From Stegostoma tigrinum (taxonomy: Eukaryota): a stretch of DNA of 64,000 nucleotides. Below, piece by piece: positions 14,354 through 62,195 of the stretch. Within the stretch, counting starts at the first letter, position 1. Each line of letters starts with the position of its first letter. The DNA lies in contig NC_081382.1 of assembly GCF_030684315.1 (NCBI RefSeq), positions 20,956,367 to 21,020,366 on the forward strand, given 5' to 3'. The translations under genes and the position numbers were made by a program. The notes below the pieces were generated by a model. That model was not told the origin of the DNA. It saw only the letters and a program-made list of their open reading frames with translations, and ran no database searches.

Positions 14354-14538
14354 ATAAAATGTGAGGCTGGATGAACACAGCAGGCCAAGCAGCATCTCAG
14401 GAGCACAAAAGCTGACGTTTCGGGCCTAGACCCTTCATCAGAGGGTTGTGCTCCTGAGATGCTGCTTGGTTTGCTGTGTTCATCCAGCCTCACATTTTAT
14501 TATCTTGGAATTCTCCAGCATCTGCAGTTCCCATTATC
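14354..14538. mobile_element. Mini PLE family A fold-back
   Basis: Inverted copies of the family A 3' end. Exact 14-bp TSD TAGGATCAAAAATA at 14340-14353 and 14539-14552. Confidence 0.9.
14414..14441 (-). ncRNA. Minimal hammerhead-ribozyme motif (family A consensus)
   Basis: Minus strand reads CTGATGA-A-GGGT(CTAG)GCCC-GAAA-CG-TC: CUGAUGA and GAAA core, short stem II, palindromic ACGU stem III, GUC triplet. Confidence 0.75.
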
Positions 14539-14818
14539 TAGGATCAAAAATAGACAGGATCTTATCGAAAGAAAGTGGAAAAAGTAACTTTCATATATCA
14601 TAGCATTTGGCTAATACAGGCTTGAGGAAAATATTGCAATTGCTAAGAGGAAGGTCGAACTCAAAAGAATTTTTTGCTATTTGGAAGAGTCTAATAGTGA
14701 CAGCAATCTATTGATTGAAAATTTTGATTCAGTTTTACTTCCTCACTTTGCTGATTTCACTGCAGCACAATCAAACCGATGGATTTGGTTTCTAACCAAC
14801 AAGATTAAAAATTGAGAG

Positions 14819-14940
14819 ATAGTAGGAACTGCCCATGCTGGAGTCTGAGATAACAAGGAGTGGAGCTAGATGAACATAGCAGGCTGGGCAGCATCAGAGG
14901 AGCAGGAACGCTGAAGATTCGGGCCTGGGCCCTTCTTCAG
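14819..14940 (-). mobile_element. Solo 3' end of a PLE family A-related element
   Basis: Single diverged arm ending at the hammerhead core (CTGAAGAAGGGCCCAGGCCCGAA on minus). AAAATTGAGAG is duplicated at 14808-14818 and 14941-14951. Confidence 0.75.
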
Positions 14941-16219
14941 AAAATTGAGAGTGATTTGATAACTCTGGGGTCAGTTTTAAAAACCTACTACCAGCCTGCA
15001 ATATTTAATGTTGTTTTCTCAGCTACTCTCTGCAATGTCACTTCTATTCATAAATGCCTGTGCTTACAGCGTCTTTAACAGCTGCTAATGCAGATTGCAT
15101 GCGGTATTTTCAGGTCCCCAGTCAAAATTTAAATAATAAATACGACGTATTATTAATGCAGGAAAAGAAACTGTGTGAGATAATATAAAGTTGAAGCCCA
15201 ACGGCAGTCTTTTGCCTCTAAAACAGCATGAATGGTATTATTGAAGCCTTTTCTTTGTTCTACCATGGGACGTAGGCATCAATAACTGGCCAGCATTCAT
15301 TGCCTCTCCCTAGTTGCCCTTGAGAAGGTGGAAGTGAGCTGCCTTCTTAAACTATGCGCTGCATGTCAGCCCACAATGCCATTAGGGAGGGAATTCCAGG
15401 ATTTTGACACAGCGACAGTGGAGGGACAGAGGTGGGGTAGGGGGATATATTTCCAAGTGAGGATAGTAAGTGGCTTGAAAGGGAATTTGCAGGTGCGGGT
15501 GTTCCCATATATCTGCTGCCCTTGTCCTTCTAGATAGAAGGTGTCACAGCTTTGGATGGTGCTGTCTAAGAATCTTGTGTGAATTTCCGCAGTGTACCTT
15601 GTAGATGGTAAACACTGCCCCTGAGCATCGGTGTTGGAGGGAATGAATGTCTGTGTATGTACTGCCATTCAAGCATACTACTTTGATTTGGGATGGTATC
15701 AAGCTTATTGAGTCTGTTTGGCACTGCACTCATCCAGGCAAATTGAGAGTATTCCATCACAGTCGTGATTTGTGCCTTGTCGATGGTGAGCAGGCTTTTA
15801 GGAGCCAACAGGTTAGGTAAGTTACTTGCCACAATATTCCTAGCCTCTGACTTGCTTTTGTCACCACTGTATTTATATGGCGATTCCGGTTGAGTTTCCA
15901 GTCAACAGAATCCCGAGGATGTTGGTAGTGATCAGTGATGGTAATAACATTGATGGTCAAGGGACAGTGGTCAGCTTGTCTGTCATTGGAGATGATCATA
16001 CCCTGGCATCGTTGTGGCATAAAAGTTACTTGTGACTTGTGAGCCCAAGCCTGGATATTTTCATGGTCCTGCTGCATTTGAACATGGGCCACTTCAGTAT
16101 CCGAGGAGTCACGAATGGTGCTGAACATTTTGCAATCATCGGTGAACATCCCCACTTCTGACCGTATGATGGAGGAAAGGTCATTGATGAAGCAGCTGAA
16201 CTGTTGGACTGAGGGCACA

Positions 16220-17055
16220 GAAACATAGAAGATAGAAGCAAGAGGAGGCCATCAGCCCTTTGAGCCTACTCCGCCATTCTTCACAATCATGGCTAATTGT
16301 CCAACTCAATAGCCTAATCCTGCTTTCTCCCGATAACCTTTGATCCCATTTGCCCCAAGTGCTATATCTGGTCACCTCTTGAATACATTCTATGTTTTCG
16401 ATCAACTGCTTCCTGTGGTAATGAAGTCCACAGGCTCACCTTTCTTTGGGTGAAGAAATGTCCCCATATCTCCGTTCTAAATCGTCTACCCAGAATCCTC
16501 GGACTGTAACCCCTGGTTCTGGACACACCTACTATCAGGAACATCCTTCCTGCATCTACCCGTCCAGTCCTGTTAGAATTTTATAAGGCTGTATGAGATC
16601 CCCCCTCATTCATCTGAATGCTAGCAAATAAAATCCCAACCTAGTCAATCTCTCCTTATACGTCAGACCCACTATCCCCAGAATCAGCCGGCTAAATCTT
16701 CGCTGCACTCCCTTGAGAGCAAGAGCTCCCCTCCTCAGAAAAGGAGGCCAAAGCTCCACACTATATTCTAGGTATGGCCTCACCAAGGCCCTGTATAACA
16801 ACAACAACACTTCCCTGTTGCTGCACTCGTAACCTCTCGCAATGAAGGCCAAAATACCATTTGTTTTCTTTACCACCTGCTGTACCTGCATGCTTACCTT
16901 CAGCGGCTGGTGCACAAAGACACCCAGGTCCCTTCTCCAAATTTGCAGCAATTCAGGTAGTAATCTGCCTTCTTGTTTTTGCTAAACTCACATTTATCCA
17001 AATTATACTGCATCTGCCATTGATTTACCCACTCGCTCAACCTGTCAAGATCATG
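16220..17055 (-). mobile_element. 5'-truncated CR1 LINE
   Basis: Minus ORFs give WQMQYNLDKC, LVRPYLEY and FFTQR. The 3' tail is near 16220. Confidence 0.9.
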
Positions 17056-17139
17056 CTGAAGGACACTGCCATGAGCCTGCAGATATGTCCTGGAGCTGAG
17101 ATGACTGACCTCCAACAGCTACAACATTCTTCTTGTGAG

Positions 17140-18590
17140 AACAAAGTGTGGAGCTGGATGAACACAGCAGGCCAAGCAGCGTCTTAGGAGCACAAAAGCT
17201 GCCGTTTCGGGTCTAGACCCTTCATTAGAAAAGGGGGATGGGGAGAGGATTCTGAAAACAATACGGAGAGAGGGGGAGGCGGACCGAAAATTGATGGAGG
17301 AGAAGATAGGTGGAGAGAAGAGTATAGGTGGGGAGGTAGGAAGGGGATAGGTCAGTCCGGGGAGGACGGACAGGTCAAATGGGCAGGATGAGGTTAGTAG
17401 GTAGGAAATGGAGGAGCGGCTTGAGGTGGGAGGAGGGGATAGGTGAGAAGAAGAACAGGTTAGGGAGGCGGGGACGAGCTACGCTGGTTTTGGGATGCAG
17501 TGGGGGAAGGGGAGATTTTGAAGCTGGTGAAATCCACATTGATACCATTGGGCTGCAGGGTTCCCAAGTGGAATATGAGTTGCTGTTCCCGAAATCTACG
17601 GGTGGCATCATTATGGCACTGCAGAAGGCCCATGATGGACACGTCGTCTAAGGAATGGGAGGGGGAGTTAAAATGGTTCGCGACTGGGAGGTGCAGTTGT
17701 TTATTGCGAACCGAGCGGAGGTGTTCTGCAAGGCAGTCCCCAAACCTCCGCTTTGTTTCCCCAATGTAGAGGTAGCCACACCGGGTACAACGGATGCATC
17801 TGCAAAGCGGTCCCCAAGCCTCTGCTTGGTTTCCCCGATGTAGAGGAAGCCACAATGGGTACAGCTTATGCACCTGTTGTGGCTTCTTCTACATTGGGGA
17901 AACCAAGTGGAGGCTTGGGGACCGCTTTGCAGAACACCTCCGCTCGGTTCGCAATAAACAACTGCACGTCCCAGTTGCGACCCATTTAAACTCCCCCTCC
18001 CATTCCTTAGACGACATGTCCATCATGGCCCTCCTGCAGTGCCACAATGATGCCACTCAAAGGTTGCAGGAACAGCAACTCATATTCCACTTGGGAACCC
18101 TGCAGCCGAATGGGATCAGTGTGGACTTCACAAGCTTCAAAATCTCCCCTCCTCCCACTGCATTGCAAAACCAGCCCAGCTCGTCCCCTCCCCCCGCTGC
18201 ATTGCAAAACCAGCCCAGCTCATCCCCCCTTCCCTAACCTGTTCTTCCTCTCACCTATCCCCTCCTCTCACCTTAAGCCGCACCTCCATTTCCTACCTAC
18301 TAACCTCATCCCACCCCCCTGACCTGTCCATCCTCTCCGGATGACCTATCCCCTCCCTACCTCTCCACCTATACTCTCCTCTCCACCTATTTTCTCCCCC
18401 ATCCATTTTCGGTCCGGCTCCCATTCTCTCCCTATTTAGTTCAGAATCTTCACCCCATCCCCCTTTTCTGATGAAGGGTCTAGGCCGGAAACGTCAGCTT
18501 TTGTGCTCCTAAGATACTGCTTGTGTTCATCCAGCCCCACACTTCGTTATCTTGGATTCTCCAGCTTCTGCAGTTCCCATTATCTCTGAC
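17140..18590. mobile_element. PLE family A fold-back with rearranged centre
   Basis: Minus arm 17140-~17865 and plus arm ~17870-18590, both with YIGETK/EHLRSV/LGTLQPNG sequence. Exact 16-bp TSD ACATTCTTCTTGTGAG at 17124-17139 and 18591-18606. Confidence 0.92.
18468..18495 (+). ncRNA. Minimal hammerhead-ribozyme motif (family A)
   Basis: CTGATGAAGGGTCTAGGCCGGAAACGTC, with one stem II mismatch. Confidence 0.6.
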
Positions 18591-19514
18591 ACATTCTTCT
18601 TGTGAGTCAGGTGTGAGTCCAACCAGGGGAGAATTTGTCCCCAATACCCATTGATTCCAGCTTTCCTCAAAAATATTGCATTAGTGATCAGGGAATGAGG
18701 TAACACTAAAAACACAAGGTAATGTGCAGGGCACGGAATAATTTTCTGTTCACATTTATGTTGATTTTGCCTTTGTATACTATCATTGCTTAAAGGGTAT
18801 AATTCCATATCAGGATTTAAAATATTTTCAAATGGTTAATTAAAGTGAAAAATTATTCTTTAAACTTATTGGGCTTAGGTTAATACCTGCATCTATAAGT
18901 GGGTGCTTACCAGAGGAAATTGTGCAATGACGCACTTGCTATAGGTCATTTGAACATAGGTCAGTAAAAAAGTTGGATAATCACCACTATTGTTTCTGCA
19001 CTTGGTGGTGGGGGGCTGTTGAAAGACACAGAAACAGAAAGCTGCTTTGCCAAGATGTTATCCATGTGCTGCCTAAGGCATATCCTTGGTAAAGTGCCCA
19101 GAAGCTAAGAGCAGAAACCATTACTGATATTGTATTGAAATAATTGAGGAAGTGCATAATCTTTGGGAAAAATGGCTATTATTTTTCCTTGAATTGTTTC
19201 AGACAGAACGTTTCTGTGCTGGCAGAAATTTGTGACGTGCCGATTACTGCTTTTCCATTTTCACTTGAGATATTTCTAAAACAAAGCCATTTGGGAAGAG
19301 ACACACTAAGTTCTATCACAGATGAAGAAAGGACATTAAAATGCTTAAACTGACATGGCTAACTTAGCTGCTATGGGAGAAGCTTTACTGAAAACAAAGG
19401 CTTATCAATTATTTCACATAATTTGACATTTGTTAATTCCTGCTCCAAAAATAGTTTAGATTTTTAATAATTTCCTTGGAGGTGATTTAAATTAAATGTT
19501 AATGGATTGAGAGG

Positions 19515-19730
19515 GGGTAGTCTAATTTAGTTGGCTGGATGGCTGGTTTCCAATGCAAAGTGATGCCAACAGCATGGGTCTACTTCCTGTATTAGCTGAG
19601 GTCATTGTGAATGTACAGCCTTCTCAACCTCACCCTTCATTCCTAAGGCATGGTGATCCTCAGGTTAAACTCACCATCAGTTGTCTCTCACTCTTTAACG
19701 AGAACGTTGGACCATTATGACTTTTCCTTT
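19515..19730 (+). mobile_element. Old SINE-like repeat
   Basis: Degenerate tRNA-like head and a short body. Single copy in the window, recognised by resemblance only. Confidence 0.3.
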
Positions 19731-20645
19731 ACCAAATGGAGTACAGTTGAGGAAGGATTTTTATTTGCTTCATCTCATCAGGTAATGAAATCAATCTTTG
19801 CACTATAACTACAGCCTGAATTTCAAACTGTGAATGAAGATTACTGAAAGAAATGGGTTCTATGGAGCTGCTGGTATTTGAGGAAGGAGGGAGAAAATGC
19901 CAAGAAGGTGACCAACTAATGAATAAAAACTAAAACAGCTGGACACACCCCAAAGAAATCAGCTGCGAAATGTGTTTCTTGTAAATCTAGTAATCAGCGT
20001 CCAAAAATCATTGAAGTAGCCTCACTATCGGCCCTACCCTCCCACTTCCTTCTCCTTTTGCTTCATTTTCTTTCTTCACTCTACCCCCCCCATCTCACTT
20101 TTTGGGTTGTGTGCAGTTCACAGAAAGGTGGACAGCATTCATTGAAATGTTTGTTTGAAGTATTCCATTCATCTTTTAAATTGTCATGGAGTGTTTATTG
20201 AAGAGAGAGCTGCTTGAAGCAGGAAGACCACCCCATAGTTTCTCCACATGTGCTTCATTTGAGTAAGGCTTCGAGCCCGGTCTGTCAGTTTTAAACCAGC
20301 CTCGAGATCTGCATAAAATGACTGCAATTCTTTGCTATGAGCAGAGCATCCTGTTGCTTATTAACCTCTGTCAATCTGACCCCCTGCCCGCTCCTGTGTC
20401 CACTCAACCTAATGTCTCACTTGGGTCTTTGAAACCCTATAAAGTTTTAAACCAAAAGAAAAACTGAGCAAAATGCTAAATTTAGGGATAGACTCATAGA
20501 GTCATACAGTGCAGTAACATATCCTTCAGGCCAACCAGTCTGTGTTGACCATAATCCCAAACTAAACTTGTTAATTGAAAGCGCAAGATACCACATTTTA
20601 CACAAAATATTTTACAGCACTGGAATTAAACAAAGCCAGCGCTTA

Positions 20646-21281
20646 GGGTAGAATTTTCCTCTCCCTGATTGTGGTGAGAGAAGTGGTGAGAAAGTGAAAT
20701 AATTGAGCGAGCTTGCCAGGAGAGAAGCACAATATAGTGTTGGCGGAGAAGACCAGTTGGTGACTTCCTCAATTCTTCAGCAACGATGGCACCCCGGTGG
20801 TTAGTCAATGGCCATGTAAGGACCTTTTCACCTTCACGTGGCCCACCTGACAGGCAGATGGGAAAGGTGGCCATTTTCCTGACTGGTAGACCATGGTGAC
20901 CTGCCTGCTGAATTAGGGGAGGAGTCTGGAGGCATAAGATACAGAGCAAGGGAGCATTCTTTGAAAGCCACCCTCCTACCCTAGATTGGGAACCCCTCCT
21001 CTTCTTGCAACTCAGACTCTATGATAAGAATGCAAACAAAAACTCATCTTCTCACCCCTGAATCAGCTCAGGAGCAGGCCTCAACTGGCAGGACCTAGGA
21101 CTCAGAAACAGATAATCTCTGATTGGCCAACATCTTCTGGTGATTTGATAGGGTGAGAAACCCCCGAATGAGTTATTTGGCATGTGATATGGTCAATCAT
21201 CTCTCTGGCGGGGATGGAATGTTAGACACCACCTAATACATGGCACCCCTTCACTTCGTCAGGAGCAGGAAAATCCTGGCC
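20646..21281. mobile_element. Putative non-autonomous PIF/Harbinger-like DNA transposon
   Basis: Imperfect 14-bp terminal inverted repeats GGGTAGAATTTTCC / GGAAAATCCTGGCC around a GC-richer interior. TTA on the left, no matching TSD on the right. Confidence 0.45.
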
Positions 21282-22141
21282 GATATATTTTCTGAATAGA
21301 TTTTACACTTGAAAGCCTCAGCTTAACACACATAACCTGTTTCTAGTTCCACCCAAGGTTTTCTCCAAATGTTACACTTCTCCCTTCGCCTGGCACCAAA
21401 CCAAAGTGGTATCACAGCTGTTTGGAATTCACTTTGATTCTCTTCAATGTTCTAACTATTATCCAAAGGATGAAACATTTTAGTGTTCTTCCATGAGCAT
21501 TTGGCTATATGACCGTCTAACTCTCCTTAATCATTCGAATTTGTGGATACCAATCCCAAGTATGGGCTTCACTACCTTGTTGCTTTGTGGTCTACTAATA
21601 GCTTTTTCTCTTGCCTGTTTCCACACTATTGCAGCTCCAGACCGAAACTATCTTCATTCAGTGAGAGAAAATACAGATAAAATGAAACTAAAAGATTGCC
21701 ACACTGCAAACTATTCCCATGGCAATGTGTCACACTTGGCACGTCCAAAATTAAAATCACCTTCACCTTCTAAAACAGCCGGGGAAGTAAATCTAGGGGA
21801 ATTACATAAATAATTTAAAACTCTAATAGGGCCAACAGCACTCTTACAAGATGTATTGGTTTTGTTCCACATCTCTGAGAGGACCACCTATTGTTTGTGG
21901 TTATTACACTTAAGCTCTTTAAGTAACCATGGATCATCTTTTGAGTGGTAATTATTTTATGGGTTTTCCCCTGGGGACTCAAACTCAGTTTTTGTTTTAC
22001 CTCATTTACCTTACATTAAAAGTTTTATCTCTAAAACATATAAATCTTGAAATCATTTTCATGACATTGAATAAGTATAATCCAGAATTGAGTGAATTCA
22101 TGTCCAGTTACGGGGGTCCAATGCCGATCAATTCAATGCAA

Positions 22142-22585
22142 CAAAGTTTACTGTTGTTTTGAAAATATTCTCACTTCCAGCATTATGCATTTGAAAGATA
22201 AGTAACTCCAGCCACCTATAGAACTAGGCCTACAGCTGCTCCTAATTCCCATGCCTGTATGTTTATAGTGGTGTGGAGGTGCCGGTGTTGGACTGTGTTA
22301 GACAAGGTCAGAAGTCACACAACTTCACCTAATGAAGAAGCAGTACTCCGAAAGCTTGTAATTTCAAATAAACCTGTTGGACTGTAACCTGGTGTCATGT
22401 GACTTCTGACTTTATCCACCCCAGTCCAACAACGGCACCTCCACATCACAGAAATAGTTAGGCAAAGTCTACTGTTGTTTTGGAAATGTTTTCACTTTCG
22501 GTATTATGCAATTGAAAGACAAGTAATTCTAGCCACCTACAAGAGTAGGCATACAGCTGCTCCGAAACGCAATATCTGTGTGCTT
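22142..22585 (+). repeat. Diverged ~120-bp direct duplication (22142-22260 and 22463-22585)
   Basis: CAAAGTTTACTGTTGTTTTG...TACAGCTGCTCC versus CAAAGTCTACTGTTGTTTTG...TACAGCTGCTCC. Confidence 0.85.
22268..22449. mobile_element. PLE-like family C fold-back with degenerate hammerhead motif
   Basis: Inverted ends GTGGTGTGGAGGTGCCGGTGTTGGACTG / CAGTCCAACAACGGCACCTCCACATCAC. Internal CTAATGAAGAAGCAGTACTCCGAAAGCTT has a decayed CUGAUGA...GAAA core and an AAGCTT palindrome. Confidence 0.65.
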
Positions 22586-23049
22586 GTAATGAAAGTAGCA
22601 AAAATAAGATCAGATAAAGAACAGAATATTACACATGTACATTAGAGACTGATGGCCTAGAGCAAGTCCTGTACCCACTAATGCAAAGTAAAAGTACTTC
22701 TGTGGAGCTACTGTAGCAGGACTCGTGTTGACTATCATTGTCTGAAAGAAAATCTGTATGGATGAAAAGAGGAGAATAATCCAAATGTTTTACTCTAGGA
22801 TAAATTAATTGGTGTTCTGACATTCAAAACTACTGGAGTCAGTTAAACAAAATTTCCCTTTGACAGCTACCAGCTTGGGTTAAAACTCTGAAATGAGTAA
22901 GGAACACAATGATATATGTATCTGATGGTATTTCAACCATTGTTGACACATGCCTCTACGTTCAGGGACATAAGACAGCTTCTTGAGTTACTTCCCCATT
23001 CAATGGCTATCCACAGCCTGGCTCTACCTGCCTACTTTGTTGTGATATC

Positions 23050-24373: not shown

Positions 24374-24611
24374 AATTGTATCAGAAATAATGGGAACTGC
24401 AGATGCTGGAGAATCCAAGACAACAAAGTGTGAAGCTGGATGAACACAGCAGGCCAAGCAGCATCTCAGGAGCACAAAAGCTGATGTTTCAGGCCTAGAC
24501 CCTTCATCAGAGAGCTCTCTGATGAAGGGTCTAGGCCCGAAACGTCAGCTTTTGTTGTCCTGAGATGCTGCTTGGCCTGCTGTGTTCATCCAGCTTCACA
24601 CTTTGTTGTCT
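24374..24611. mobile_element. Mini PLE family A palindrome with no central loop
   Basis: Axis at GAG|CTC (24514/24515) between back-to-back hammerhead motifs. Exact 15-bp TSD TAGTTACATTTGGAA at 24359-24373 and 24612-24626. Confidence 0.92.
24519..24546 (+). ncRNA. Minimal hammerhead-ribozyme motif (family A consensus)
   Basis: CTGATGAAGGGTCTAGGCCCGAAACGTC, exact consensus. Confidence 0.75.
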
Positions 24612-25668
24612 TAGTTACATTTGGAAGCAGGTTCCTCCTTGAAAGTAGTTTCTGACAAAAATAGCTAATATTTCATTCTCCAACAGCAAAACCATTTAGT
24701 TGAAAATACGTTGATTCTAACTTACGGAGGTTAAATTTAACAAAATACCATTTTAATCATGTATAAATGCCAGGCTGGATTTAATACATTAGCAGATAAT
24801 ATTTGAAATGCAATTTGCAATTCATATCTAAGGACAGTTGCAACATGATGAATAAACATCATAACTTTATTGTCAAAGTCAAATAAAGGTTTAAAAATTT
24901 GTGATTCACGTATATTTTATATGATCTTTTGCATCCTCTGCAATGTTCTATGCATCACAATTCACAATAAAATAAAAGAATTAATGTGTGTAGAATTAAG
25001 TGGAATGGATTGCACAGAAGCAGGCAATCAGCTAATGCCCTCAGTGCTTACATTCTATATGAATTTCATTCCACTCCTCTTCATCCGACTAACAACATAA
25101 CACTATGTGGTTTGAAAAGGGTAACAGGGAGATGTCAAGGGAATGGCACCAGTTGAGATGTTCAATAGGACAGTCAATGCTATGCTGTAACTATTCAGTG
25201 TTTATTTGATCCCATTGGATTTGGATTCACTGTGGTTAATAAGAAGGCATGCTATCTTCTTATGGCTTGATTTTGATGGACAACTTGGTTCGTTGTTCCA
25301 GCTGAATCTCGTGCTTTTCTTGTCAGTTGTGATCATGCTGTGTTTCAACTGAATCAAATCGATCGGTGCAGTCTATTTCTCTCCAAAGTGAAGGAGGATT
25401 ACAGGCAGCCAGACGCACATTCATAAAACATGAAAATCTGGAGGTTAATTTGAGTCAGCTGACATCATCATGACGAAGGATAAAGTCATGACTAGTTGTT
25501 ATTGCTTCGTGGAACTATGGACTTGGATGCTTGCTAATTGTAATTCAGCATTGTTACTTTTGGTCATAAATTGTGGTTCTTAATTGTCTTCCAGCATTGA
25601 AAACTATGCCAGCCTGTTGGATACAAAACAGATGTTTATCCATTAAAACAATTTTTTCAAATCTTATT

Positions 25669-25868: not shown

Positions 25869-26009
25869 TTCAAATTCTACTGATGATCAGCTGCATGGCT
25901 TTTTAACAGGAATTGCATTCTTCGGTCTCATCCTTAAACCTTTGATAATGCCTGTCAAGTCTTAATAGCACTGAGTAACTGAAACTGCAGTCAAATGGAA
26001 ACCTTGACT

Positions 26010-26066: not shown

Positions 26067-26467
26067 TAATTTCCCACAGCTAACCCACCCTAACCCGCAC
26101 ATCCCTGTGCACTATGGGTAATTTCCCACAGCTAACCCACCCTAACCCGCACATCCCTGTGCACTATGGGTAATTCCCCACGGCTAACCCACCCTAACCC
26201 GCACATCCCTGTGCACTATGGGTAATTTCCCACAGCTAACCCACCCTAACCCGCACATCCCTGTGCACTATGGGTAATTTCCCACAGCTAACCCACCCTA
26301 ACCCCCACATCCCTGTGCACTATGGGTAATTCCCCACGGCTAACCCACCCTAACCCGCACATCCCTGTGCACTATGGGTAATTCCCCATGGCTAACCCAC
26401 CCTAACCCGCACATCCCTGTGCACTATGGGTAATTTCCCACAGCTAACCCACCCTAACCTGCACATC
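26067..26467. repeat. 52-bp minisatellite (~7.7 units) expanded inside an HE1-like SINE
   Basis: Unit TAATTTCCCACAGCTAACCCACCCTAACCCGCACATCCCTGTGCACTATGGG starts at 26067, 26119, 26171, 26223, 26275, 26327, 26379 and 26431, then runs directly into SINE body to ~26570. Confidence 0.95.
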
Positions 26468-34574: not shown

Positions 34575-34779
34575 GCTACACCTAGAGTGCACTATCACAG
34601 CTACACTTTGAGTGCACTATCACAGCTACACCTAGAGTGCACTATCACAGCTACACCTAGAGTGCACTATCACAGCTACACCTAGAGTGCACTATCACAG
34701 CTACACCTAGAGTGCACTATCACAGCTACACCTAGAGTGCACTATCACAGCTACACTTTGAGTGCACTATCACAGCTAC
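34575..34779. repeat. 25-bp minisatellite (~8.2 units)
   Basis: Unit GCTACACCTAGAGTGCACTATCACA. Units 2 and 8 share the variant ...CACTTTGAG... Confidence 0.95.
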
Positions 34780-39058: not shown

Positions 39059-39199
39059 AAATAAAAACCAAAAGAACTGCGGATGCTGTAAATCAGGAAC
39101 AAAAACAAAGTTTCTGGAAAAGCTCACCAGGCCTGGCAGCATCTGTGAAGGAGAAAACAGAGTTAACGTTTTAGGTCCAGTGACCCTTCCTCAGAACTC
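39059..39199 (-). mobile_element. Solo PLE family B 3' end
   Basis: 14-bp TSD CTGCTCTTAATCTT / CTGCTGTTAATCTT at 39045-39058 and 39200-39213. The 5' boundary coincides with the start of hammerhead stem I. Confidence 0.85.
39160..39199 (-). ncRNA. Family B type-I hammerhead motif (GAAA mutated to AAAA)
   Basis: Minus strand: GAGTT-CTGAGGA-A-GGGTC(ACTG)GACCT-AAAA-CGTT-AACTC. Stem I is GAGTT/AACTC, with an AACGTT palindrome. Confidence 0.65.
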
Positions 39200-47624: not shown

Positions 47625-47837
47625 AAGAACTGCGGATGCTGTAAATCAGGAACGAAAGCAAAATTGCTGGAAAAGCTCAGCAGGTCTGGCAGCATCTGTG
47701 AAAGAAAAAACAGAGTCAAAGTTTCAGGCCTGGTGATCCTTCCTCAGAACTAGTCCGGACACGAAACGTTAACTCTGTTTTTTCCTTCACAGATGCTGCC
47801 GGACCTGCTGAACTTTTCCAGCAATTTTGTTTTTGTT
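47625..47837. mobile_element. Mini PLE family B fold-back
   Basis: AAAGAACTGCGGATGCTG...CCTTCCTCAGAAC followed by inverted GAAACGTTAACTC...CAGATGCTGCC...TTTTGTT. Weak ~10-bp TSD. Confidence 0.85.
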
Positions 47838-51545: not shown

Positions 51546-52092
51546 AACCAGGATTTTGCAGGGCAGCGGTCACACTGTCTACTGGCAAGAAAGTTGGCAA
51601 CAATCTCACCCTGGACAGCAAATGGGAGATTCAATCTGAATTTTAAGTAATTAACTGCCTGCTATCAGAGCAATGATCCCCTTAAGGGGACGATTCCAAT
51701 CCTAACAGGGGCTGGCCATCACACCGTCAGAAACTCTTCAATTCTAGCAATACCATTCGAAGGAACGGCTATTCCTGTGACCAGAACTAGGAAGATCCAG
51801 GGTCACCTCTGTGGGCCTTAGGATGCTTTAGCATCATGCTCCCACCGGACGTCTGCAAGAAGGTTTATCTGGAGTTCAGCCAAGTGGTGTAGGACACTCC
51901 CTTTCCACCACCGGGTAAATATCTGCAATGGTAGGAAAACAACCTTAAGTCTCCTTCAGTTGGCCATTAAGGGGACATAACTGGTGTCTAGACAATGGGG
52001 CCATCTGCCACCTCTTCCACTACTGACATCCCAATATTCTATCCATGTCCCTGCCTCTCAGCAAGCTACCTGAGGTCCTGTAAAATCCAGTT
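51546..52092. mobile_element. Putative non-autonomous Harbinger-like TIR element
   Basis: Ends AACCAGGATTTTGCAGG / CCTGTAAAATCCAGTT are imperfect inverted repeats, similar to those of 20646-21281. Confidence 0.45.
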
Positions 52093-53175
52093 CAATGTTC
52101 TATTGTTCAACAATGGCATCGGTCAGATAAACTAAATTGCTTATTCAAAATATCAACATTCTACCAGGTCTAATAATAAAACATGATGGATAATCAACCA
52201 TGCTTCAAATTCTGATTCTGTGTTGACAATGAATAGAGCAGTGTTGAATAAATATTGGCATTCGAGGACAAGAAGTAAAATAGCACAAAACCTTGGTGCA
52301 AAAGTGTAAGGCATACCGTTGACTGACACGTATTTCTTCATTAAGTATGAAAATGGGTGTTTGCACTTACTTAGCTGTGATCCATGCGCATAAAGTCCAA
52401 TGTGCTCAAAAAACAGTCACTGGGGCATGTTTACGTTTCAACATAACCCATCTTAATCCATTCAGAAAAACACAAAATAAAGATCTGGTCTCCATGAAGA
52501 GAAAAACCATTCATAAAATTCAAGCAAAATCCACAAGAATTACCTTGATTTCTCTGCTGCAACTGAAAACTAGATTGCAATGTGAAGGTACAATCTGAAA
52601 AATGCAGTTGGGGTATATCCAAATTCAAGAGTTGCAGGTATGGCCAGTTATAGGGCAATGAGTTTAGTCCAGTGGAAGATTCAATGGTCAGAGAACGCCA
52701 ATGAAATTTGGCATATTGTTGCCATGTGAGTCAATATTTTCAATATTCTTCAACCATCTTTATTGATTTGTGTCCAGATTGCATGTTTTCCTGGATACAG
52801 ATGTGAAGGAAACACCAGGACCCTAAATCTACATTTATAATAAAAACGCGCCTATGTAAATATATAGTGCTATAAAGAACACCCACTTTTCAGTAAGAAC
52901 CAAAAGAACTGAGGATGCTGTAAATCAGGAACAAAAACAAAGTTGCCGGAAAAGCTCAGCAGGTCTGGCAGCATCTATGGAGGAGAAAAAAGAGTTAACG
53001 TTTCAGAGTCGGTTCTGAGGAAGGGTTACCGGACCCAAAACGTTAACTCTTTTTTTCTCCTCCACAGATGCTGCCAGACCTGCTGAGCTTTTCCAGCAAC
53101 TTAGTTTTTGTGATAATAAAATGTGAGGCTGGATGAACACAGCAGGCCAAGCAGCATCTCAGGAGCACAAAAGCT

Positions 53176-53203
53176 GACGTTTCGGGCCTAGACCCTTCAT
53201 CAG
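53176..53203 (-). ncRNA. Minimal hammerhead-ribozyme motif (family A consensus)
   Basis: Minus strand reads CTGATGAAGGGTCTAGGCCCGAAACGTC. Confidence 0.75.
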
Positions 53204-53427
53204 AGAGGGGGATGGGGGGAGGGAACTGGAATAAATAGGGAGAGAGGGGGAGGCGGACCGAAGATGGAGAGTAAAGAAGATAGGTGGAGAGGGTGTAGGT
53301 GGGGAGGTAGGGAGGGGATCGGTCAGTCCAGGGAAGACGGACAGGTCAAGGAGGTGGGATGAGGTTAGTAGGTAGCTGGGGGTGCGGCTTGGGGTGGGAG
53401 GAAGGGATGGGTGAGAGGAAGAACCGG

Positions 53428-54145
53428 TTAGGGAGGCAGAGACAGGTTGGACTGGTTTTGGGATGCAGTGGGTGGGGGGGAAGAGCTGGGCTGGTAGTGT
53501 GGTGCAGTGGGGGGAGGGGATGAACTGGGCTGGTTTAGGGATGCAGTGGGGGAAGGGGAGATTTTGAAACTGGTGAAGTCCACATTGATACCATATGGCT
53601 GCAGGGTTCCCAGGCGGAATATGAGTTGCTGTTCCTGCAACCTTCGGGTGGCATCATTGTGGCAGTGCAGGAGGCCCATGATGGACATGTCATCAAGAGA
53701 ATGGGAGGGGGAGTGGAAATGGTTTGCGACTGGGAGGTGCAGTTGTTTGTTGCGAACTGAGCGGAGGTGTTCTGCAAAGCGGTCCCCAAGCCTCCGCTTG
53801 GTTTCCCCAATGTAGAGAAAGCCGCACCGGGTACAGTGGATGCAGTATACCACATTGGCAGATGTGCAGGTGAACCTCTGCTTAATGTGGAATGTCATCT
53901 TGGGGCCTGGGATGGGGGTGAGGGAGGAGGTGTGGGGACAAGTGTAGCATTTTCTGCGGTTGCAGGGGAAGGTGCCGGGTGTGGTGGGGTTGGAGGGCAG
54001 TGTGGAGCGAACGAGGGAGTCATGGAGAGAGTGGTCTCTCCGGAAAGCAGACAGGGGTGGGGATGGAAAAATGTCTTGGGTGGTGGGGTCGGATTGTAAA
54101 TGGCGGAAGTGTCGGAGGATAATGCGTTGTATCCGGAGGTTGGTA
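53428..54145 (-). pseudogene. Uninterrupted 3' part of PLE ORF: Cys-rich linker plus GIY-YIG endonuclease (Neptune-like)
   Basis: NLRIQRIILRHF...CNRRKCYTC...VVYCIHCTRCGFLYIGETKRRLGDRFAEH...ANHF..PSHS...RRLQEQQLIFRLGTLQPYGIN. 5'-truncated with no RT. Confidence 0.9.
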
Positions 54146-54726
54146 GCTCCACACTGCCCTCCAACCCCACCACACCCGGCACCTTCCCCTGCAACCGCAG
54201 AAAATGCTACACTTGTCCCCACACCTCCTCCCTCACCCCCATCCCAGGCCCCAAGATGACATTCCACATTAAGCAGAGGTTCACCTGCACATCTGCCAAT
54301 GTGGTATACTGCATCCACTGTACCCGGTGCGGCTTTCTCTACATTGGGGAAACCAAGCGGAGGCTTGGGGACCGCTTTGCAGAACACCTCCGCTCAGTTC
54401 GCAACAAACAACTGCACCTCCCAGTCGCAAACCATTTCCACTCCCCCTCCCATTCTCTTGATGACATGTCCATCATGGGCCTCCTGCACTGCCACAATGA
54501 TGCCACCCGAAGGTTGCAGGAACAGCAACTCATATTCCGCCTGGGAACCCTGCAGCCATATGGTATCAATGTGGACTTCACCAGTTTCAAAATCTCCCCT
54601 TCCCCCACTGCATCCCTAAACCAGCCCAGTTCATCCCCTCCCCCCACTGCACCACACTACCAGCCCAGCTCTTCCCCCCCACCCACTGCATCCCAAAACC
54701 AGTCCAACCTGTCTCTGCCTCCCTAA
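54146..54726 (+). pseudogene. Mirror copy of the PLE GIY-YIG coding region
   Basis: Translation is identical to the minus-strand arm from STLPSNPTTPG onward. Confidence 0.9.
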
Positions 54727-54950
54727 CCGGTTCTTCCTCTCACCCATCCCTTCCTCCCACCCCAAGCCGCACCCCCAGCTACCTACTAACCTCATCCCAC
54801 CTCCTTGACCTGTCCGTCTTCCCTGGACTGACCGATCCCCTCCCTACCTCCCCACCTACACCCTCTCCACCTATCTTCTTTACTCTCCATCTTCGGTCCG
54901 CCTCCCCCTCTCTCCCTATTTATTCCAGTTCCCTCCCCCCATCCCCCTCT

Positions 54951-54978
54951 CTGATGAAGGGTCTAGGCCCGAAACGTC
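54951..54978 (+). ncRNA. Minimal hammerhead-ribozyme motif (family A consensus)
   Basis: CTGATGAAGGGTCTAGGCCCGAAACGTC. Confidence 0.75.
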
Positions 54979-55364
54979 AGCTTTTGTGCTCCTGAGATGC
55001 TGCTTGGCCTGCTGTGTTCATCCAGCCTCACATTTTATTATCTTGGAATCTCCAGCATCTGCAGTTCCCATTATCTCTGAACTTAGTTTTTGTTCCCACT
55101 TTTCAGTAGATGAGCTACAGCACCATCACTAGTAACAGTGTGCAATTATAGCCCAGTATATTTACGCAGGCAATTGCCAGTCTAAATGTGGACAAAGGAA
55201 TTTCTTGTGCAATTATATAGAATGAATGTTTTTAAAATGAGAATTGATTTACGTTTGTGTTCTCCAGTCTATCTCTCACCTAATCCCATTTCACCAGAAG
55301 GCTACACTTGTTCTTGACTCTCTCTTGTGAAATACCACAGAAACCTGATAATACATATTTTATA

Positions 55365-55591
55365 GATAACAAAGTGTGGAGCTGGATGAACATAGCAGGC
55401 CAAGCAGCATCTCAGGAGCACAAAAGCTGACCTTTTGGGCCTAGACCCTTCATCAGAGTTCTCTCTGATGAAGGGTCTAGGCCCAAAACATCAGCTTTTG
55501 TGCTCCTGAGATGCTGCTTGGCCTGCTGTGTTCATCCAGCTTCACACTTTGTTATCTTGGATTCTCCAGCATCTGCAGTTCCCATTATCAC
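55365..55591. mobile_element. Mini PLE family A palindrome
   Basis: Centre CCTTCATCAGAG-TT-CTCTCTGATGAAGG. TSD TAATACATATTTTATA / TAATATGTATTTTATA, where CA versus TG fits decay of one CpG. Confidence 0.9.
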
Positions 55592-56009
55592 TAATATGTA
55601 TTTTATATATAGTTGCGCATGTGCATTTGAATTAAAACAATCCTGGTCCCAGTTGCTTGAAAATTCTGACATTTTGCCCACGTGTTAAAGTTTACGTGAT
55701 TTTGCGAAGTAATTCTATTCCAATCCTGGCAACTTAATTTTTGTTGATATGTCATCCTTTAATAAAACAAAATTGTAACTGTACCAGAAAACTTCTTTTG
55801 TATGAATAAAGACAGCCTTACTGATTTAATGCACATTTTATTTTACGTCAAATTTACTTACTGTACATGTTTGTTTTCATGTTTGACTTTGGAACAGCAG
55901 CAGTCACATTTCCCCAAAACCTCTGTGAAGGCCAAAAGGAATGATTGAATACACTAATGGATTCTAGATCTCTCATTTAATCAGACATACAGTGGGATTA
56001 TGTTCTTGC

Positions 56010-56150
56010 AAAGAAAGAATTTGCATTTACATAGTATGCTTCATTCCCTTGAGGCATCTCAAAGCATTTTACAGTCATTGAATTACGTTTATTGTTAGGT
56101 TGGCGAACTTTCTGTATCTTGCCAGTAGGTCAGCCATGCAGTCACAGAGC
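56010..56150 (-). mobile_element. DeuSINE-like 3' tail fragment
   Basis: AAAGAATTTGCATTTACATAGTATGCTTC...CTCAAAGCATTTTACAG is similar to 63295-63438. Confidence 0.45.
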
Positions 56151-56575
56151 TTCAAACAGATTTGGCCAAATTTTCAACTGGATCCGAAGAGGCGTTTTCA
56201 CATTCAAACACCAAACCTTGACTTTAGTTTCAAAGAAATCCGATTTTCCCCTGCATTCATGACCCTGCACCATTTCCCTCTGCTCTTTCTGCGGACAGGG
56301 AATGCCTGGAGTGCAAACTGCATACCCTTCCTCATTTTAAACAGGGGGACAAACGTCGGATTTTGATCTACGCACCATTTTCAGCTGGCAGTGCTGGATT
56401 TCAGAAGCCTGTTAAACAGTACTTCGGATTTGAGAACTTGTGAAGAAGATAAAATGCCCACTAACTAGGACTGGGCTGACCACAGTGACAAACTAGGCAG
56501 TCGCCCATGGCAGCACACCTTGAGGAGTGCCAATTTTGAATGCCAATTAGATAAACAAAAATTCCCTCTAGTCTT

Positions 56576-56714
56576 AGATAACAAAGTGTGGAGCTGGATC
56601 TAGGCCCAAAGCGTCAGTTTTTGTGCTCCTGAGATGCTGCTTAGCCTGCTGTGTTCATCCAGCTCCACACTTTGTTATCTTGGATTCTCCAGCATCTGCA
56701 ATTCCCATTATCTC
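56576..56714. mobile_element. Mini PLE family A fold-back
   Basis: 24-bp inverted stub plus tailed arm. 14-bp TSD TTCCCTCTAGTCTT / TTCCCTCTAATCTT. Confidence 0.88.
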
Positions 56715-57724
56715 TTCCCTCTAATCTTCTCATTTTCTCTGTTTTTTTGTAAATTTGGGAGTGAACAGGAGTATTTTGTCAGGAGTGGAAATGGATGCCA
56801 AACTCATAATTAGCATAATGCGCTAAAAGCCTTTGGGGCCAGCCTGCTGCTGAGGAAATATCCTGAAACCTAAAAGTGAAGTCTTTCCACATCTTTGATG
56901 TATCTGTTAGATGTTGTATTAGAGTGTAAATGTTTTTTACTGCTGTGATTTTGACATGGAAAGGTTATGTTGAACATTACGTTGAACACCACTATGTAAT
57001 TTGCATGTGCAATATCATGTTTTTCTAACAAAGAAAGTGCCACAATACATTGAATATTATTTTTAAAAAGTCTTTCACTGTCACATTTTTGTGCTCTAAT
57101 TTAGTTGGACTGAAAGGTATTACTCTGTTCGTGGAGCAGTAAGATTTTATTCTGACATCAGTTCCATTATGAGTGCATGGCTGGGTTTAAAAAGCTTGAA
57201 CTGAGCAGGTCACCCTAGTGATTCAAAAACTACTGAAATTAAGCCCATAAATAATAGGATATATATTTTATACAGTTACTAGTTTATTTATAACGTTTTT
57301 TTAACCTTGGATTTTTGGTCCATTATCAGATATAATGAGATGTATTTAGAGTTTTCTTAGATTGCCACAGATGTAATGGTTTTCCAATGACTACAGTAAG
57401 TGTAATTGCTATTGAGTGTTTCCTAATAACTGTATGTAGTGCAGCATGGGTTAGCGATATGGAACATTGATTGGGCCAAAACGAAATTGTGGTGTGGCAT
57501 CAAACAATATGAGGTAGCATGCAGTAGAAGGGGATGGCTGTGAGATGGGTAAAAGGTGAAGTTTAGGCGTCTCAAAACAGCTTTGGAAGCCTGGCCATTG
57601 TATTTGAGAACCTAAAGCTATTCTGACTAGCCCACGTCCTCATTGACATGCTTGTCACAGCTCGCAAAATGCGCCACAAACCTGACCACTGTGTGAAAAG
57701 GTGACAAATTCTAATAAAGCTGCT

Positions 57725-58050
57725 GATGGCCTCGTGGCATTGTCACTAGGCTTTTAATCCAGAGACCCAGGTAATGTTCTGGGGACATGGGTTCATATCC
57801 TACCATTGCAGATAGTTGAATTTGAGTTCTTTAACAAAACAATAAATTAGGAGTCTGATAATAACCAAGAAACCATTGTCAATTTTCGGATATCCATCTG
57901 GTTCACCAATGGTCTTTAGGAAAGGAACCTGCTGCCCTTAGCCAGTGTGGCTTATGTGTGATTCAGACCCATAATAATGTGATTGATTCTTAACTGCCCT
58001 CTGGGAAGTAAATGTTGACCTAGTCAGCAGTGGCCACATCCCATGAAGGA
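57725..58050 (+). mobile_element. SINE family 2 copy
   Basis: TGGCCTCGTGG A-box, GGGTTCATATCC B-box, body matching 26575-26925. Confidence 0.75.
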
Positions 58051-59554
58051 ATGTCTAAAAGAGGAGAAAATGGGCCTGGAGCATTCCTTGCAATTTGGGT
58101 TTCCCTGAGATGGGACAATCATTCGGTCCATTTTGTCTTTTCAGAATTTTTCAGTGTTTCAGGAGTCCTTTAAAGTGCAACAACTCTTATTTTCTGGACA
58201 ATGGGACAGTTAGTTTGCCTACTGCAACGTCCCAGAAACAACAACTTGGTGAAAAATTCATGGATTGTTCCAATTCACTTATTTTTGTGTTTCTCGTTAG
58301 AATACCGTCAGTCAATGCAACTTCCTGATCTTATTTGAAGGGAGCTGTGAGATCATTAACATTCAACTGCAGCATCAAATCATCAAACAAGGCTCTGCAG
58401 TAAGTGATTACTAAGCAATATCAGTCAGGACAATCTCCAGGTTTCATCAATAGTCTTACTTACAATGGCGATTGCTATTAGCAGTTGTTCTATCATAGCC
58501 TTGTGGTCCTCATTTGAGTGTCCCATCCATTTTACAATTTGCAATGGTGTCAAGTTCCATTCCCTGCTCATTTGGATTGATTGTTGTCTGCCCTAGATTA
58601 ATTATCCTCCACCTCCTAATCCTATTTCATCAGAAGATTTTGGCCTTGAAATACTTCTATATTCTGATCACGATATATATGATGTTGTAATGAGACCATG
58701 TTATTAGGCAGGTTTACAAGGCAACAATATTGCTTCTATTTAAATCAAGCATTTCTGCTGAAATGGTTTTATATCATACAAAAACATTCTTCTTATCCAT
58801 TGGAGTTTCTTAACATGCAAATAGTGAAAGCTATGCTATCTTAAATTGCAGCGCATATCAGACGTCTAATCAGGCTTTTCTGCAAATGGATTTTATAGGC
58901 TTACCAAGTATTTTAGCACAAGCGTATGTTCTCTAATGCACAGAAGTATGGCCTTTTATTTCATAAGATTCAAATGGTGAAACCCTTAATGTACATTCGG
59001 CCAAGTCCTTTCTGAATAGTAGCTTATTCTTATCCCAGCGCCATGCTCTTTCTATTGCATTTAGTTTTTTGCTTGGTCAGTGTCAGGAACAAACTCACAC
59101 CATCCACTGGATGCACAGACTCCACCTATTTACGTTCTAATGGTTTCATATCCTCAATCCTTATTGAAGAGAATCTTAATTGGGGCAGATTCATATTTGG
59201 TTTAGAAAATTGTGCATGTGTTACACCCAGGGATACTTAAGTAAAAGAAAGTGTAATTGGGTATTCAGGTTAATCTTAGAGTGAGATGTAAAACAATTGA
59301 TTGTGCAGAATTACCTAAAAATAGTAGACTGTACCATGTGTATTGAGTGTATTGTATGCTCATATGTTGTGTCTGTGGAGTATATCTATGGTGAAGACCT
59401 GTGTCTGTAACAATGAATGTTACAATGCCTTTGAAGAATTCCTTCACCTTCCTTCGATTTTCATTGCCTCATAATCCAAAACTGGTTTACTTCTGTATAC
59501 CACTTAAAATGCACCTGAAAATGTTAATCAATAGATTGACCAGTTTGCTAAAAT

Positions 59555-59780
59555 GAGAACAAAAGCAAAATGCAGTGGATGCTGAAGATCTGAAATAATA
59601 TCAGGAAATGCTTGGGAAATTTAGCATGTCTGGCAGCCGCTGTACAGAGAGAAAGAGAGAGAGAGAGCTAATGTTTTGAGTACAATGTGACAGCTCTGAT
59701 GGAGTGTCAGATTAGACAAATTACGTTTAAAAGGCTGCTGCCAGACCTGCAGAATTTCTCTAGCACTTTCTGAGTTTAGT
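59555..59780. mobile_element. Old PLE family B-related fold-back
   Basis: TGTCTGGCAGC...GCTGCCAGACCTGC inverted arms, with a decayed CTGATGGA core in the middle. Confidence 0.6.
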
Positions 59781-60029
59781 TAGAAAATGACATCAAATGC
59801 TGAAACAAAGAGTTTGAAATAGATCAATCATGCTCCGACCTCTGTAAGGAAGTTTTCTGCAGCTTGGCACTGTTTAGGGAACAAAGAATGGATTAAAATG
59901 GCAGATTAGAATACATAGCTCTGTAAAATCAGCCATTCCTGGATTAATCAGGCAATACAAAGCTGGGTACCAGTTCTTCAGATAAACACTGCAAGAAAAA
60001 GATAAATGCCACATATACACAGGACAAAA

Positions 60030-60340
60030 TATTTTTATTCATTAATGGGACTTTTGCATCACTTGCAAGGCCAACATTTATTGTCCATCCCTAACTCTCC
60101 TTCAGATGTAGTAGTGAGCCAGCTTCATGAACAGATGTAGCCTGTGTGGAGAAGGGACACATACAGTGCTATGTGGAGGTGGTTCCCAGATCTTGATGCA
60201 ACAACAAGATGAGGAGCATTGGTAACTTGTCAAGTTAGGATGGAGTGTGACTTTGAGGGGAACTTGCAGCTGGATATTTCCATGCTCCTGCAGACCTTTA
60301 TTTTTCAATTGATAAAAAATCTCACAGGTTTGAGTTGCTG
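60030..60340 (-). mobile_element. LINE family X 3' end fragment
   Basis: GGCCAACATTTATTGTCCATCCCTAA...GACTTTGAGGGGAACTTGCAG matches 15290-15500. Confidence 0.65.
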
Positions 60341-61145
60341 AAAACATCGGGTGTCAATGTTTAAGATAGTGAATAATCCACAGCCACCAGGGACAGAAAT
60401 TTCCCAGCCTCTAAACAACCTGGGAGGTGGCAAGAGAATTGGGAAAACTAGCGAGAATGGAAAAAAAATCAGATTGCCGAGGTCAAGAAAATATATCAGA
60501 ATATATGCATGAGCTTTTAACAGTTAGTTGAGAATCTCACTAGTGAGTTGCAAGCAGCCTATTTGCATGTACCAACATCTTATTATTAACAAAACTTGCC
60601 TCATTTACATGCAGCTTGCAGTTTTTCCCAAGTCATGAGTTTCTTCTTCAAGCATCAATCTTGGACAGTACTCCCCAAAACCTCAGGTCACACTCTATGG
60701 GTAGTGACCACTTTGATCCCCAACAACAGAGGCTCGCATTGGCAGAACACCAGCCTCACCACATCATCAGAGAACAACTTGATTGCACTTGAAACACAGA
60801 TGAGTACTTCAATCCTGCATTTTGGAGCTCACATTGCAATGCTGCAGCCAGATTGCACTGTACAGAAGGACAGCACATTATTATCTTATTTCATTATTAT
60901 TACACATTATCTCCTGCATCGGATCAGAGTGTGTCACAGGGCTCTTAGCTTGCTTTCTTAGTCTGCGTTCACTTCTACTTGAATACTTACAGTATTCCTG
61001 CCTTGCCTTGTCTTATTGTGCTGTGCCATTTCATCCAGAACATTTACTTGCATCTCCAGAGCACTGCCCATGAACAGGATGCCAATCTGCCAGTGTCGGC
61101 CATACCCCTTGGAAATTTTCACACACTGGAACTTTGCAGGGCAAG

Positions 61146-61462
61146 GGTGGCACGGTGGCTCAGTAGTTAGCACTGCTGCCTCACAGCACCAGGGACCCAG
61201 GTTCGATTCCACCCTCGGGCGACTCTCTGTTTCTGAGGTCGTTTGCACGCTCTTCCCCGTGTCTGTGTGGGTGTCCTACGGTTTCCTCCCACAGTCCGAA
61301 GATGTGCAGGTTAGGTAAATTGTCCGCGCTAAATTCCCCATAGTGTTCAGGGATGTGTAGATTAGATGGGTTATGGGGGATGGGTCTGGGTGGGATGCTC
61401 TTTGTGTCAGTGTGGACTTGTTGAGCCAAAGGGCCTGTTTCCACACTGGAGGGGTTCTATGA
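61146..61462 (+). mobile_element. HE1-like SINE
   Basis: A-box TGGCTCAGTAG (~61156), B-box GGTTCGATTCC (61200-61210), CR1-like 3' tail. Confidence 0.9.
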
Positions 61463-61874
61463 AAAATTATATGAAATTCCTGGTTTGCAGCAAGGCAACA
61501 CTAAGTAGCTGGGTTTAAATCTGGCACCAGTGGCATGAGCACCAGAGGGTGGTAGTGAGCACAAGATAATGCAAGAACAGAGCAATGGAGACCTGGTACA
61601 TATGAGATGAGCAATGCAAGATTGCATGAATAAGTCACTACAGCTCGTGGAGAGAAAGCCTCTACTAAACTCGCCAAAATTGACACTTGATCAAATATTT
61701 GGAAAATATAGACCAAGAGTTGAAAGTTAACCTCCAGGTTACTGACGTAAGCAACTCATCAAGAATTAACTTATAACAAAAGCTTTCACATTCTCTTTGA
61801 ATACTTTATCAATAATTACAAAAATGTAGAGATGGGAAGAAAATCTATTTGACTGACAGCAAGAAACACCAGTT

Positions 61875-62195
61875 CGGAGGGAGATAGGTTGGATTTGGTG
61901 AGGGGGGCAGAGAAATTAAGTCGGCCAACAGCATGTCGACAGTTCTCAATGAAGAGATCGAGCGCAGGTAAAAGATCAGAGGGAGGGACCCAGGTAAAGG
62001 GAAAGTGTTGGAACTGGGCAAAGGGGTCTGTGGGACAGGGGGAAGACTCTTGTCTAAAGAAATGTGCATAGAGGCGAAGATGGCTGAAGAAGAGTTCTGA
62101 GGAAGGGTCACCAGACCTGAAACATTACCTCTAACTTTTTTCTTCACAGATCCTGTCAGATGAGCTGAGCTTTTCCAGCTGCTTCTGTTTTTGTT
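61875..62195. mobile_element. PLE family B insertion with purine-rich 5' segment
   Basis: 15-bp TSD CAAGAAACACCAGTT / CAAGAAACACCAATT. Hammerhead motif GAGTTCTGAGGAAGGGTCACCAGACCTGAAAC at ~62092-62123. Confidence 0.75.

Follow-up and report, generated by a model that had tools for sequence, protein, structure and literature searches.

The 64,000-nucleotide (nt) stretch of Stegostoma tigrinum contig NC_081382.1 analysed here (positions 20,956,367 to 21,020,366, hereafter the window) carries short hammerhead ribozyme motifs of three families, A, B and C, that lie within truncated insertions of Penelope-like elements (PLEs). Sixteen family A sites and five family B sites are found within 8 mismatches. 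The evidence supports assigning the motifs to the PLE minimal type I hammerheads, a kind already published. Overall they are best explained, and probably so, as parts of truncated PLE insertions in which the hammerhead would head the element RNA, be slow alone and cut as a dimer of pseudo-long terminal repeats (pLTRs) with protein help. The features of the window are as follows, beginning with a young insertion (positions relative to a motif are given from the core nucleotide C3 or from the cut site).

53112..55082: young head-to-head PLE insertion with 897-nt arms that are 100% complementary, a short tail on the left, a long tail on the right and a 14-base-pair (bp) target site duplication (TSD)
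54951..54978 (+): exact family A hammerhead with a 4-bp stem II, stem III ACGU and a predicted cut after GUC at 54978
53176..53203 (-): exact family A hammerhead on the opposite arm of the insertion holding 54951(+)
53428..54393 (-): 3' part of a PLE open reading frame (ORF; thumb, CX4CX2C linker, GIY-YIG), 5'-truncated, with a mirror at 54100-54726(+)
54917..54923 (+): TATA-like box TATTTAT, 34 nt above C3 and 30 nt above the modal 5' end
54947..54950 (+): CTCT, the modal 5' end of A copies and putative RNA start; the final two bases form the 5' strand of the 2-bp stem I
54979..55082 (+): pLTR beyond the cut site, with a short 3' end at +60 to +68 and a long one at +96 to +102, the ~35 nt between them being the PLE tail
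14345..14539: short head-to-head A insertion containing the exact hammerhead 14414-14441(-), with a 13-bp TSD
24381..24612: short head-to-head A insertion with hammerheads 24483-24510(-) and 24519-24546(+), each arm stopping 4 nt upstream of C3
6533..8219: head-to-head A insertion containing fragments of the endonuclease; both hammerheads, 6635-6662(-) and 8126-8153(+), are mutated, and the TSD has 14 bp
17137..18589: older head-to-head A insertion with hammerheads 17201-17228(-) and 18468-18495(+) and a 16-bp TSD
55364..55592: short head-to-head A insertion with mutated hammerheads 55429-55456(-) and 55465-55492(+)
39165..39194 (-): copy of family B with a mutated G12
47660..47830: family B head-to-head insertion with a mutated hammerhead at 47718-47747(-) and a 3' half from near 47760(+)
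53015..53044 (+): copy of family B with a mutated G12; an inverted arm lies upstream
62097..62126 (+): copy of family B with mutations in stems I and III
62432..62461 (+): copy of family B, decayed to 7 mismatches
22329..22357 (+): family C copy with G5>A and damaged stems, within a short inverted insertion at ~22270-22447

The 28-nt family A motif is exact at all four sites given for it in a preliminary description of this sequence (14414-14441(-), 24519-24546(+), 53176-53203(-) and 54951-54978(+)), and the family C copy was likewise located at 22329-22357(+). That description was also right that the family B copies it listed are mutated, and none of the five sites found here combines an intact core with stem III, but its site at 47760(+) is only a 3' half, which belongs to the 47718 copy as its inverted arm. 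The young A insertion went into the tail of the family B copy at 53015, and 14 bp of this tail were duplicated, so that at 53015-55100 the A insertion is the younger of the two.

Exact pattern matching across the 3.2-Gb genome, with the reversed motif as control, returns 92,176 copies of family A, 4,129 of family B and 94 of family C; each of these reversed controls returns 0. A descriptor scan for minimal hammerheads brought up a fourth family, D, which has 8,722 exact copies in the genome. The scan covered 1.424 Mb, made up of the window and 136 unselected 10-kb stretches, and yielded 105 sites, whereas three dinucleotide shuffles yielded 3, 0 and 1, an excess which indicates that the motifs are not due to chance. 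Stem III is palindromic in 85 of the 105 sites, with CpG decay accounting for most exceptions, and an extra nucleotide after A9 is required in 104 of them. The core CUGANGA ... GAAA ... UH is present in families A to D, as judged from the genome counts. An Rfam scan gave no match to a hammerhead family; its five matches at E<=1 were all to microRNA hairpin models, below gathering scores and located on inverted repeats.

Base pairs were read with a structure-anchored script on natural copies instead of from the MAFFT alignment, which had put two family C rows one column off. In intact copies the opening pair of stem II, G10.1-C11.1, is always G-C, while position 2 of that stem is G-C or U-A depending on the family. 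The pair 2.1-1.1 is U-A in A and B, C-G in C and A-U in D, and the pair 15.2-16.2 is C-G in A, B and D and G-C in C. A core that stays constant while pairs swap between families would be the meaningful sign of selection, as read across four related families. Stem II varies yet pairs, as had been proposed, with 4, 5, 5 and 6 bp in A, B, C and D respectively. Stem III is ACGU in A, B and D and AGCU in C, so the self-complementarity described for A to C stands, but the palindrome of the active fold has 4 nt (A15.1 to U16.1) and not 6, because the longer version counted in core nucleotides A14 and U17. Stem I has 3-4 bp in C and D, and its suspected length of only 2 bp in A was borne out by natural copies, young and old. 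In B it has 4 bp instead of the 5 described: the native upstream sequence is CAGTT (1,447 exact copies with the motif), and the fifth pair derives from flanks or fold-back arms. The extra nucleotide was given as A, which is correct for A, B and C, while D has U. Families A and B are less independent than the term "three designs" implies, because stem III is identical in the two and their tails are related. An example of family D, with its extra U and 6-bp stem II, lies at locus L208:2513-2546(+) and another at locus L293. Loci L055 and L067 are near-perfect fold-backs at stem I, which makes this stem very long in the resulting B hammerheads; such fold-backs, if transcribed, could fold more stably than the native motif.

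Conservation across copies had been put forward as a test of function and was rejected, since core and tail diverge equally. At non-CpG core sites of young family A copies the divergence is 13/1,034 (1.26%), compared with 61/4,700 (1.30%) in the tail (p=1.0), and 38 of the 94 young A copies spanning the motif are identical to the reference. The test is invalid because copies decay neutrally, and only changes between families are informative.

The association with PLEs given in the preliminary description holds for A and B, both of which are tied to PLE ORFs in this genome. The A hammerheads at 53203(-) and 54951(+) each have upstream of them the 3' end of an ORF with a GIY-YIG domain. Longer genomic copies of family A encode, from direct reading of the translation, a single ORF with a reverse transcriptase containing DKG and YIDD, a CX4CX2C linker, a CCHH motif and, at its C-terminus, GIY-YIG, and Pfam RVT_1 and GIY-YIG both match it with scores below the curated cut-offs. 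This layout is Neptune-like and suggests that family A is an endonuclease-containing (EN+) PLE of the Neptune/Nematis type; Neptune and Nematis carry a reverse transcriptase, a CX2-5CxxC linker, a CCHH motif and GIY-YIG (PMC8557442). The family A ORF begins ~138 nt past the cut site. The pLTR-ORF junction of A occurs in 949 exact genome copies, and 3 of 30 junction loci, picked for long ORF matches, continued into the ORF. When extended, these three (L151-L153) are full-length direct tandems with the order hammerhead-ORF-hammerhead at spacings of 3,564, 3,471 and 3,556 nt, with broken frames of ~1,050 codons. In family B a related thumb and endonuclease lie upstream in four of seven long copies and at locus L292, and in family D an endonuclease fragment, of a different GIY-YIG endonuclease, lies upstream in five of nine long copies. 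No PLE ORF was found for family C in five sampled long copies or at L291 or L294. Many loci among L122-L149 are internally deleted direct tandems, in which the ORF start is joined to the ORF end and two same-strand hammerheads lie a few hundred nt apart; these are candidates for natural cis dimers.

Among neighbouring family A copies within 500 nt of each other, 49 arrangements are head-to-head, 12 are direct and 8 are tail-to-tail. Among 72 head-to-head A pairs within 4.5 kb, 66 combine a long and a short tail, 3 have two short tails, none has two long tails and 3 are unclassified. A TSD of at least 8 nt, mostly 13-16 bp, flanks 49 of the 66 long-and-short pairs, compared with 4 of 300 random flank pairs. 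The insertions thus have the inverted truncated copy, the 30-40 nt tail at one end and the TSD of an EN+ PLE insertion unit. The extents of the two arms correlate (rho 0.52), and the arm reaching further 5' is the short-tailed arm in 23 pairs, the other arm in 17 and neither in 12 (n=52). A fold-back of a single long-tailed complementary DNA (cDNA) as the sole source of inverted arms was ruled out, the short-tailed arm being longer in 23/52. A five-site haplotype is common to both arms in 26 of 42 young pairs, compared with 7.2 after shuffling (maximum 16 in 2,000), and such sharing may also come about through later homogenisation of the arms. The simplest reading of these pairs is that the two ends of a staggered cut both served as primers, at two sites of a single RNA. 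The close head-to-head pairs, being on opposite strands, cannot dimerise with each other in cis; a cis dimer could form only in a full-length transcript, between its two pLTR copies, or in the short internally deleted tandems.

These short insertions could also be regarded as an element of their own, non-autonomous and retrozyme-like, which would spread by way of self-cleaved circles. Both arms are limited to hammerhead and tail in 44 of the 66 pairs, internally deleted direct tandems occur among L121-L150, and animal retrozymes derived from PLEs are found in one chondrichthyan genome according to a preprint (10.64898/2026.07.22.740005). However, junctions vary from copy to copy, short and long insertions have the same tails and TSDs, and the short pairs are inverted instead of forming head-to-tail arrays, making a separate element very improbable. 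The window contains no head-to-tail arrays of non-coding hammerhead units, the layout of retrozymes.

The ends of individual copies were mapped in an unselected sample of 284 A copies with tail, of which 163 have at least 88% identity and 160, after dropping copies at stretch edges, are termed young. Their 3' ends cluster either at +60 to +68 or at +96 to +102, counted from the cut site. Since 140 of the 160 young copies run through the cut site, the templates for insertion appear to have been uncut at the primed hammerhead. Upstream, 53 of the 114 young copies extending that far stop at -35 to -26 from the cut, which is the 5' edge of the hammerhead; ends per nt amount to 0.061 in this interval, compared with 0.007 at the cut site itself and 0.001 in the sequence lying further upstream. 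Family B behaves alike, with 56 of 71 at-risk copies stopping at the edge and 4 of 105 at the cut (112 copies, after taking 29 A copies out of an initial 141). Among 30 loci for each of B and C, chosen by pattern for an intact core, 29 of the B loci end within 6 nt of C3 with a mode at -4 (9/30), and 27 of the C loci end within 7 nt with a mode at -7 (6/30). TATA-like boxes start at -34 (A), -32 (B) and -37 (C) from C3, which places them 30, 28 and 30 nt above the modal ends, and the 5'-end mode of B lies in TCAGTT, which we take to be an initiator-like sequence. It is likely, from the position of these boxes and copy ends, that transcription is TATA-driven and starts at the edge of stem I in A, B and C. 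An RNA that begins with stem I would explain why this stem is short.

The pile-up of 5' ends could instead reflect reverse transcriptase stalling, or joining of cDNA ends, at a self-complementary hammerhead, in which case the short stem I would be unrelated to a promoter and the identity of the motif as a PLE hammerhead would be the same. Many short copies are inverted junctions, some of them the near-perfect fold-backs at stem I noted above (L055, L067), the motif is rich in palindromes, and ends are already elevated inside the hammerhead (0.009-0.014 per nt). This origin is nevertheless unlikely: ~13 young A copies with no upstream inverted arm also stop at -33 to -27, several pairs join bluntly at -32 or via short inserts, the peak lies upstream of the structured part, and a TATA-like box stands 28-30 nt above the peak in three families.

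Under the explanation by truncated PLE insertions, each motif would form the first 30-40 bases of an element RNA whose TATA-driven start lies at the 5' edge of the hammerhead. The monomer is predicted to be misfolded and slow, and according to the literature cutting would occur only once both pLTR copies of a full-length transcript pair via the 4-nt palindrome, probably assisted by the protein of the element; its likely job would be the release of unit-length RNA. The two ends of a staggered cut would both prime reverse transcription on uncleaved RNA, at sites separated by ~35 nt, and synthesis would run off the RNA 5' end, giving short copies. A more detailed joint reading is tentative and rather less probable than the general explanation. 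Here TATA-directed transcription would start 4-7 nt before the core, so that the first RNA bases are stem I, a ~14-nt staggered cut would be twin-primed at two reverse transcription start sites on one uncleaved RNA, and paired 5' and 3' hammerheads would cut off a capped 32-nt leader, leaving a unit-length RNA that could circularise and restore the promoter. If true, this reading would place the hammerhead within the PLE cycle, and it can be tested by end mapping.

In the folding prediction, the family A monomer forms a register-shifted rod in which CUGAUG pairs with CGUCAG, 2 nt off the active register, and stem I is outcompeted by other folds (probability 0.00). The predicted rod fits a low intrinsic activity but is not proof of function. 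The family A stem II stem-loop, GGGUCUAGGCCC, comes close to self-complementarity as a whole, and the dimer fold prediction places it in an intermolecular helix of 12 bp.

Several observations weigh against the explanation preferred here. A 5' end at the cut site was considered as a possible fossil of cleavage; 0 of 160 young A copies and one older copy begin there, and the copy ends of A and B gave no such genomic trace of cutting. By nearest-neighbour folding, a model which leaves out tertiary contacts and protein, the active dimer is much less stable than alternative folds in each of the four families (A: -5.5 versus -39.8 kcal/mol). Family D has no pile-up at the hammerhead edge (27 copies, of which 3 end at -17), and the 5'-end peak is spread over ~10 nt, BLAST ends being fuzzy. 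The TATA spacing was noticed post hoc, the box of family A departs from the canonical sequence, and A is related to B. Pairs of family B are less strict (15 long and short, 4 short and short, 3 unclassified, n=22), and the C insertion of the window seems to have two long arms. The link of family C to a PLE ORF is weak, consisting of two collinear pieces (E=0.049) in one of three further copies.

Alternatively, the family A hammerhead may have lost catalysis in practice and be retained for folding or protein binding, or merely carried along as a passenger, with palindromes that might pair two RNAs instead of building an active site. All catalytic positions are kept in four families with differing stems, which argues against such a loss, as does the D. 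virilis motif with a 2-bp helix I that cleaved weakly once helix III was extended (PMC4209133). A role in RNA-RNA pairing is also not needed for the variants shared between arms. Although the loss is therefore improbable, it agrees with the 2-bp stem I of young and old A copies and the dominant rod fold, with the lack of copies starting at the cut site, with catalytic mutants that still insert in vitro (PMC11167929) and with PLE clades that thrive with no hammerhead (PMC8557442).

The class of PLE minimal hammerheads, with its extra nucleotide, palindrome, low in vitro activity and proposed dimer, was described by Cervera and de la Pena in 2014 (PMC4209133), and the families here are further members. 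They share with that class the type I topology, the extra nucleotide between 9 and 10.1, the G10.1-C11.1 pair, the lack of loop 3, the palindromic 15.2-16.2 pair, several families per genome and mostly truncated copies, some of them in close opposite-strand pairs. In contrast to the Schistosoma mansoni families (stem I 4-5 and stem II 7-8 bp), stem I has 2-4 and stem II 4-6 bp here, and whereas coelacanth and Xenopus have about 4,000 and 9,000 motifs, a single exact motif reaches 92,176 copies in this genome. No shark term occurs in supplement file 2 of the same paper. The Penelope hammerhead of Drosophila virilis resembles A in its 2-bp helix I (PMC4209133); unlike that element, where helix I marks the end of an intron and 2 nt are inserted in helix III, A has no splice acceptor upstream of C3.

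The Poseidon element PAc of Anolis carolinensis (Frangieh et al. 2024, PMC11167929) uses two reverse transcription start sites to make its tail, has unprocessed RNA as main substrate and needs protein for its hammerhead. Two starts defining a 30-40 nt tail, cutting of both strands, insertion of uncleaved RNA and the absence of cut-site ends are common to PAc and to the insertions as interpreted here. The PAc ORF starts in stem II, unlike that of A at ~138 nt after the cut site, and the A linker is of Neptune type. The available text of that paper gives no start site or TATA relation for PAc. Head-to-head inverted arms, a tail on one arm and a TSD match the canonical EN+ PLE unit (PMC8557442; PMC3846280), to which the present data add the count of long-and-short tails (66 of 69 classified pairs), TSDs of mostly 13-16 bp, the further 5' extension of either arm and the 5' ends at the stem I edge. 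A TATA box and an initiator-like sequence were previously noted in the pLTR of the rotifer Adineta vaga (PMC8557442; PMC3846280), and the inverted-plus-tail unit and the Drosophila promoter are covered among PMC8557442, PMC3846280, PMC2377424, PMC6765202 and PMC6155905. The function of the hammerhead in EN+ PLEs has been stated to be unclear (PMC8557442).

A literature search found nothing linking the PLE hammerhead, TATA and transcription start, a weak negative as most subscription papers lie outside its coverage. It also returned no on-topic account of Penelope twin priming with inversion (titles only) or of shark PLE hammerheads, again within limited coverage. The motif finding alone is ordinary; the contribution of this genome lies in scale and in precise copy ends. 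Tens of thousands of young copies log where reverse transcription started and stopped, and in three families their ends suggest that transcription starts at stem I. An experiment would be worthwhile for the reading that combines this start site with twin priming, and the coordinates yield exact 5'-end predictions together with a natural series of 2-bp and 4-bp stem I.

Right after the cut site, family B (e.g. 39140-39164, -) has TTAAC overlapping the cut site, a pyrimidine tract, CAG and then ATG. By eye, we assume that the branch-point-like TTAAC, the pyrimidine tract and CAG resemble a splice acceptor. Elsewhere in the window, tandem arrays with 96% matches lie at 26067-26467 (52-nt unit, 7.7 copies) and 34575-34779 (25-nt unit, 8.2 copies). 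Reverse transcriptase fragments of long interspersed nuclear element type (RVT_1 matches), unrelated to PLEs, are present at 2770-3513 and 9601-11028.

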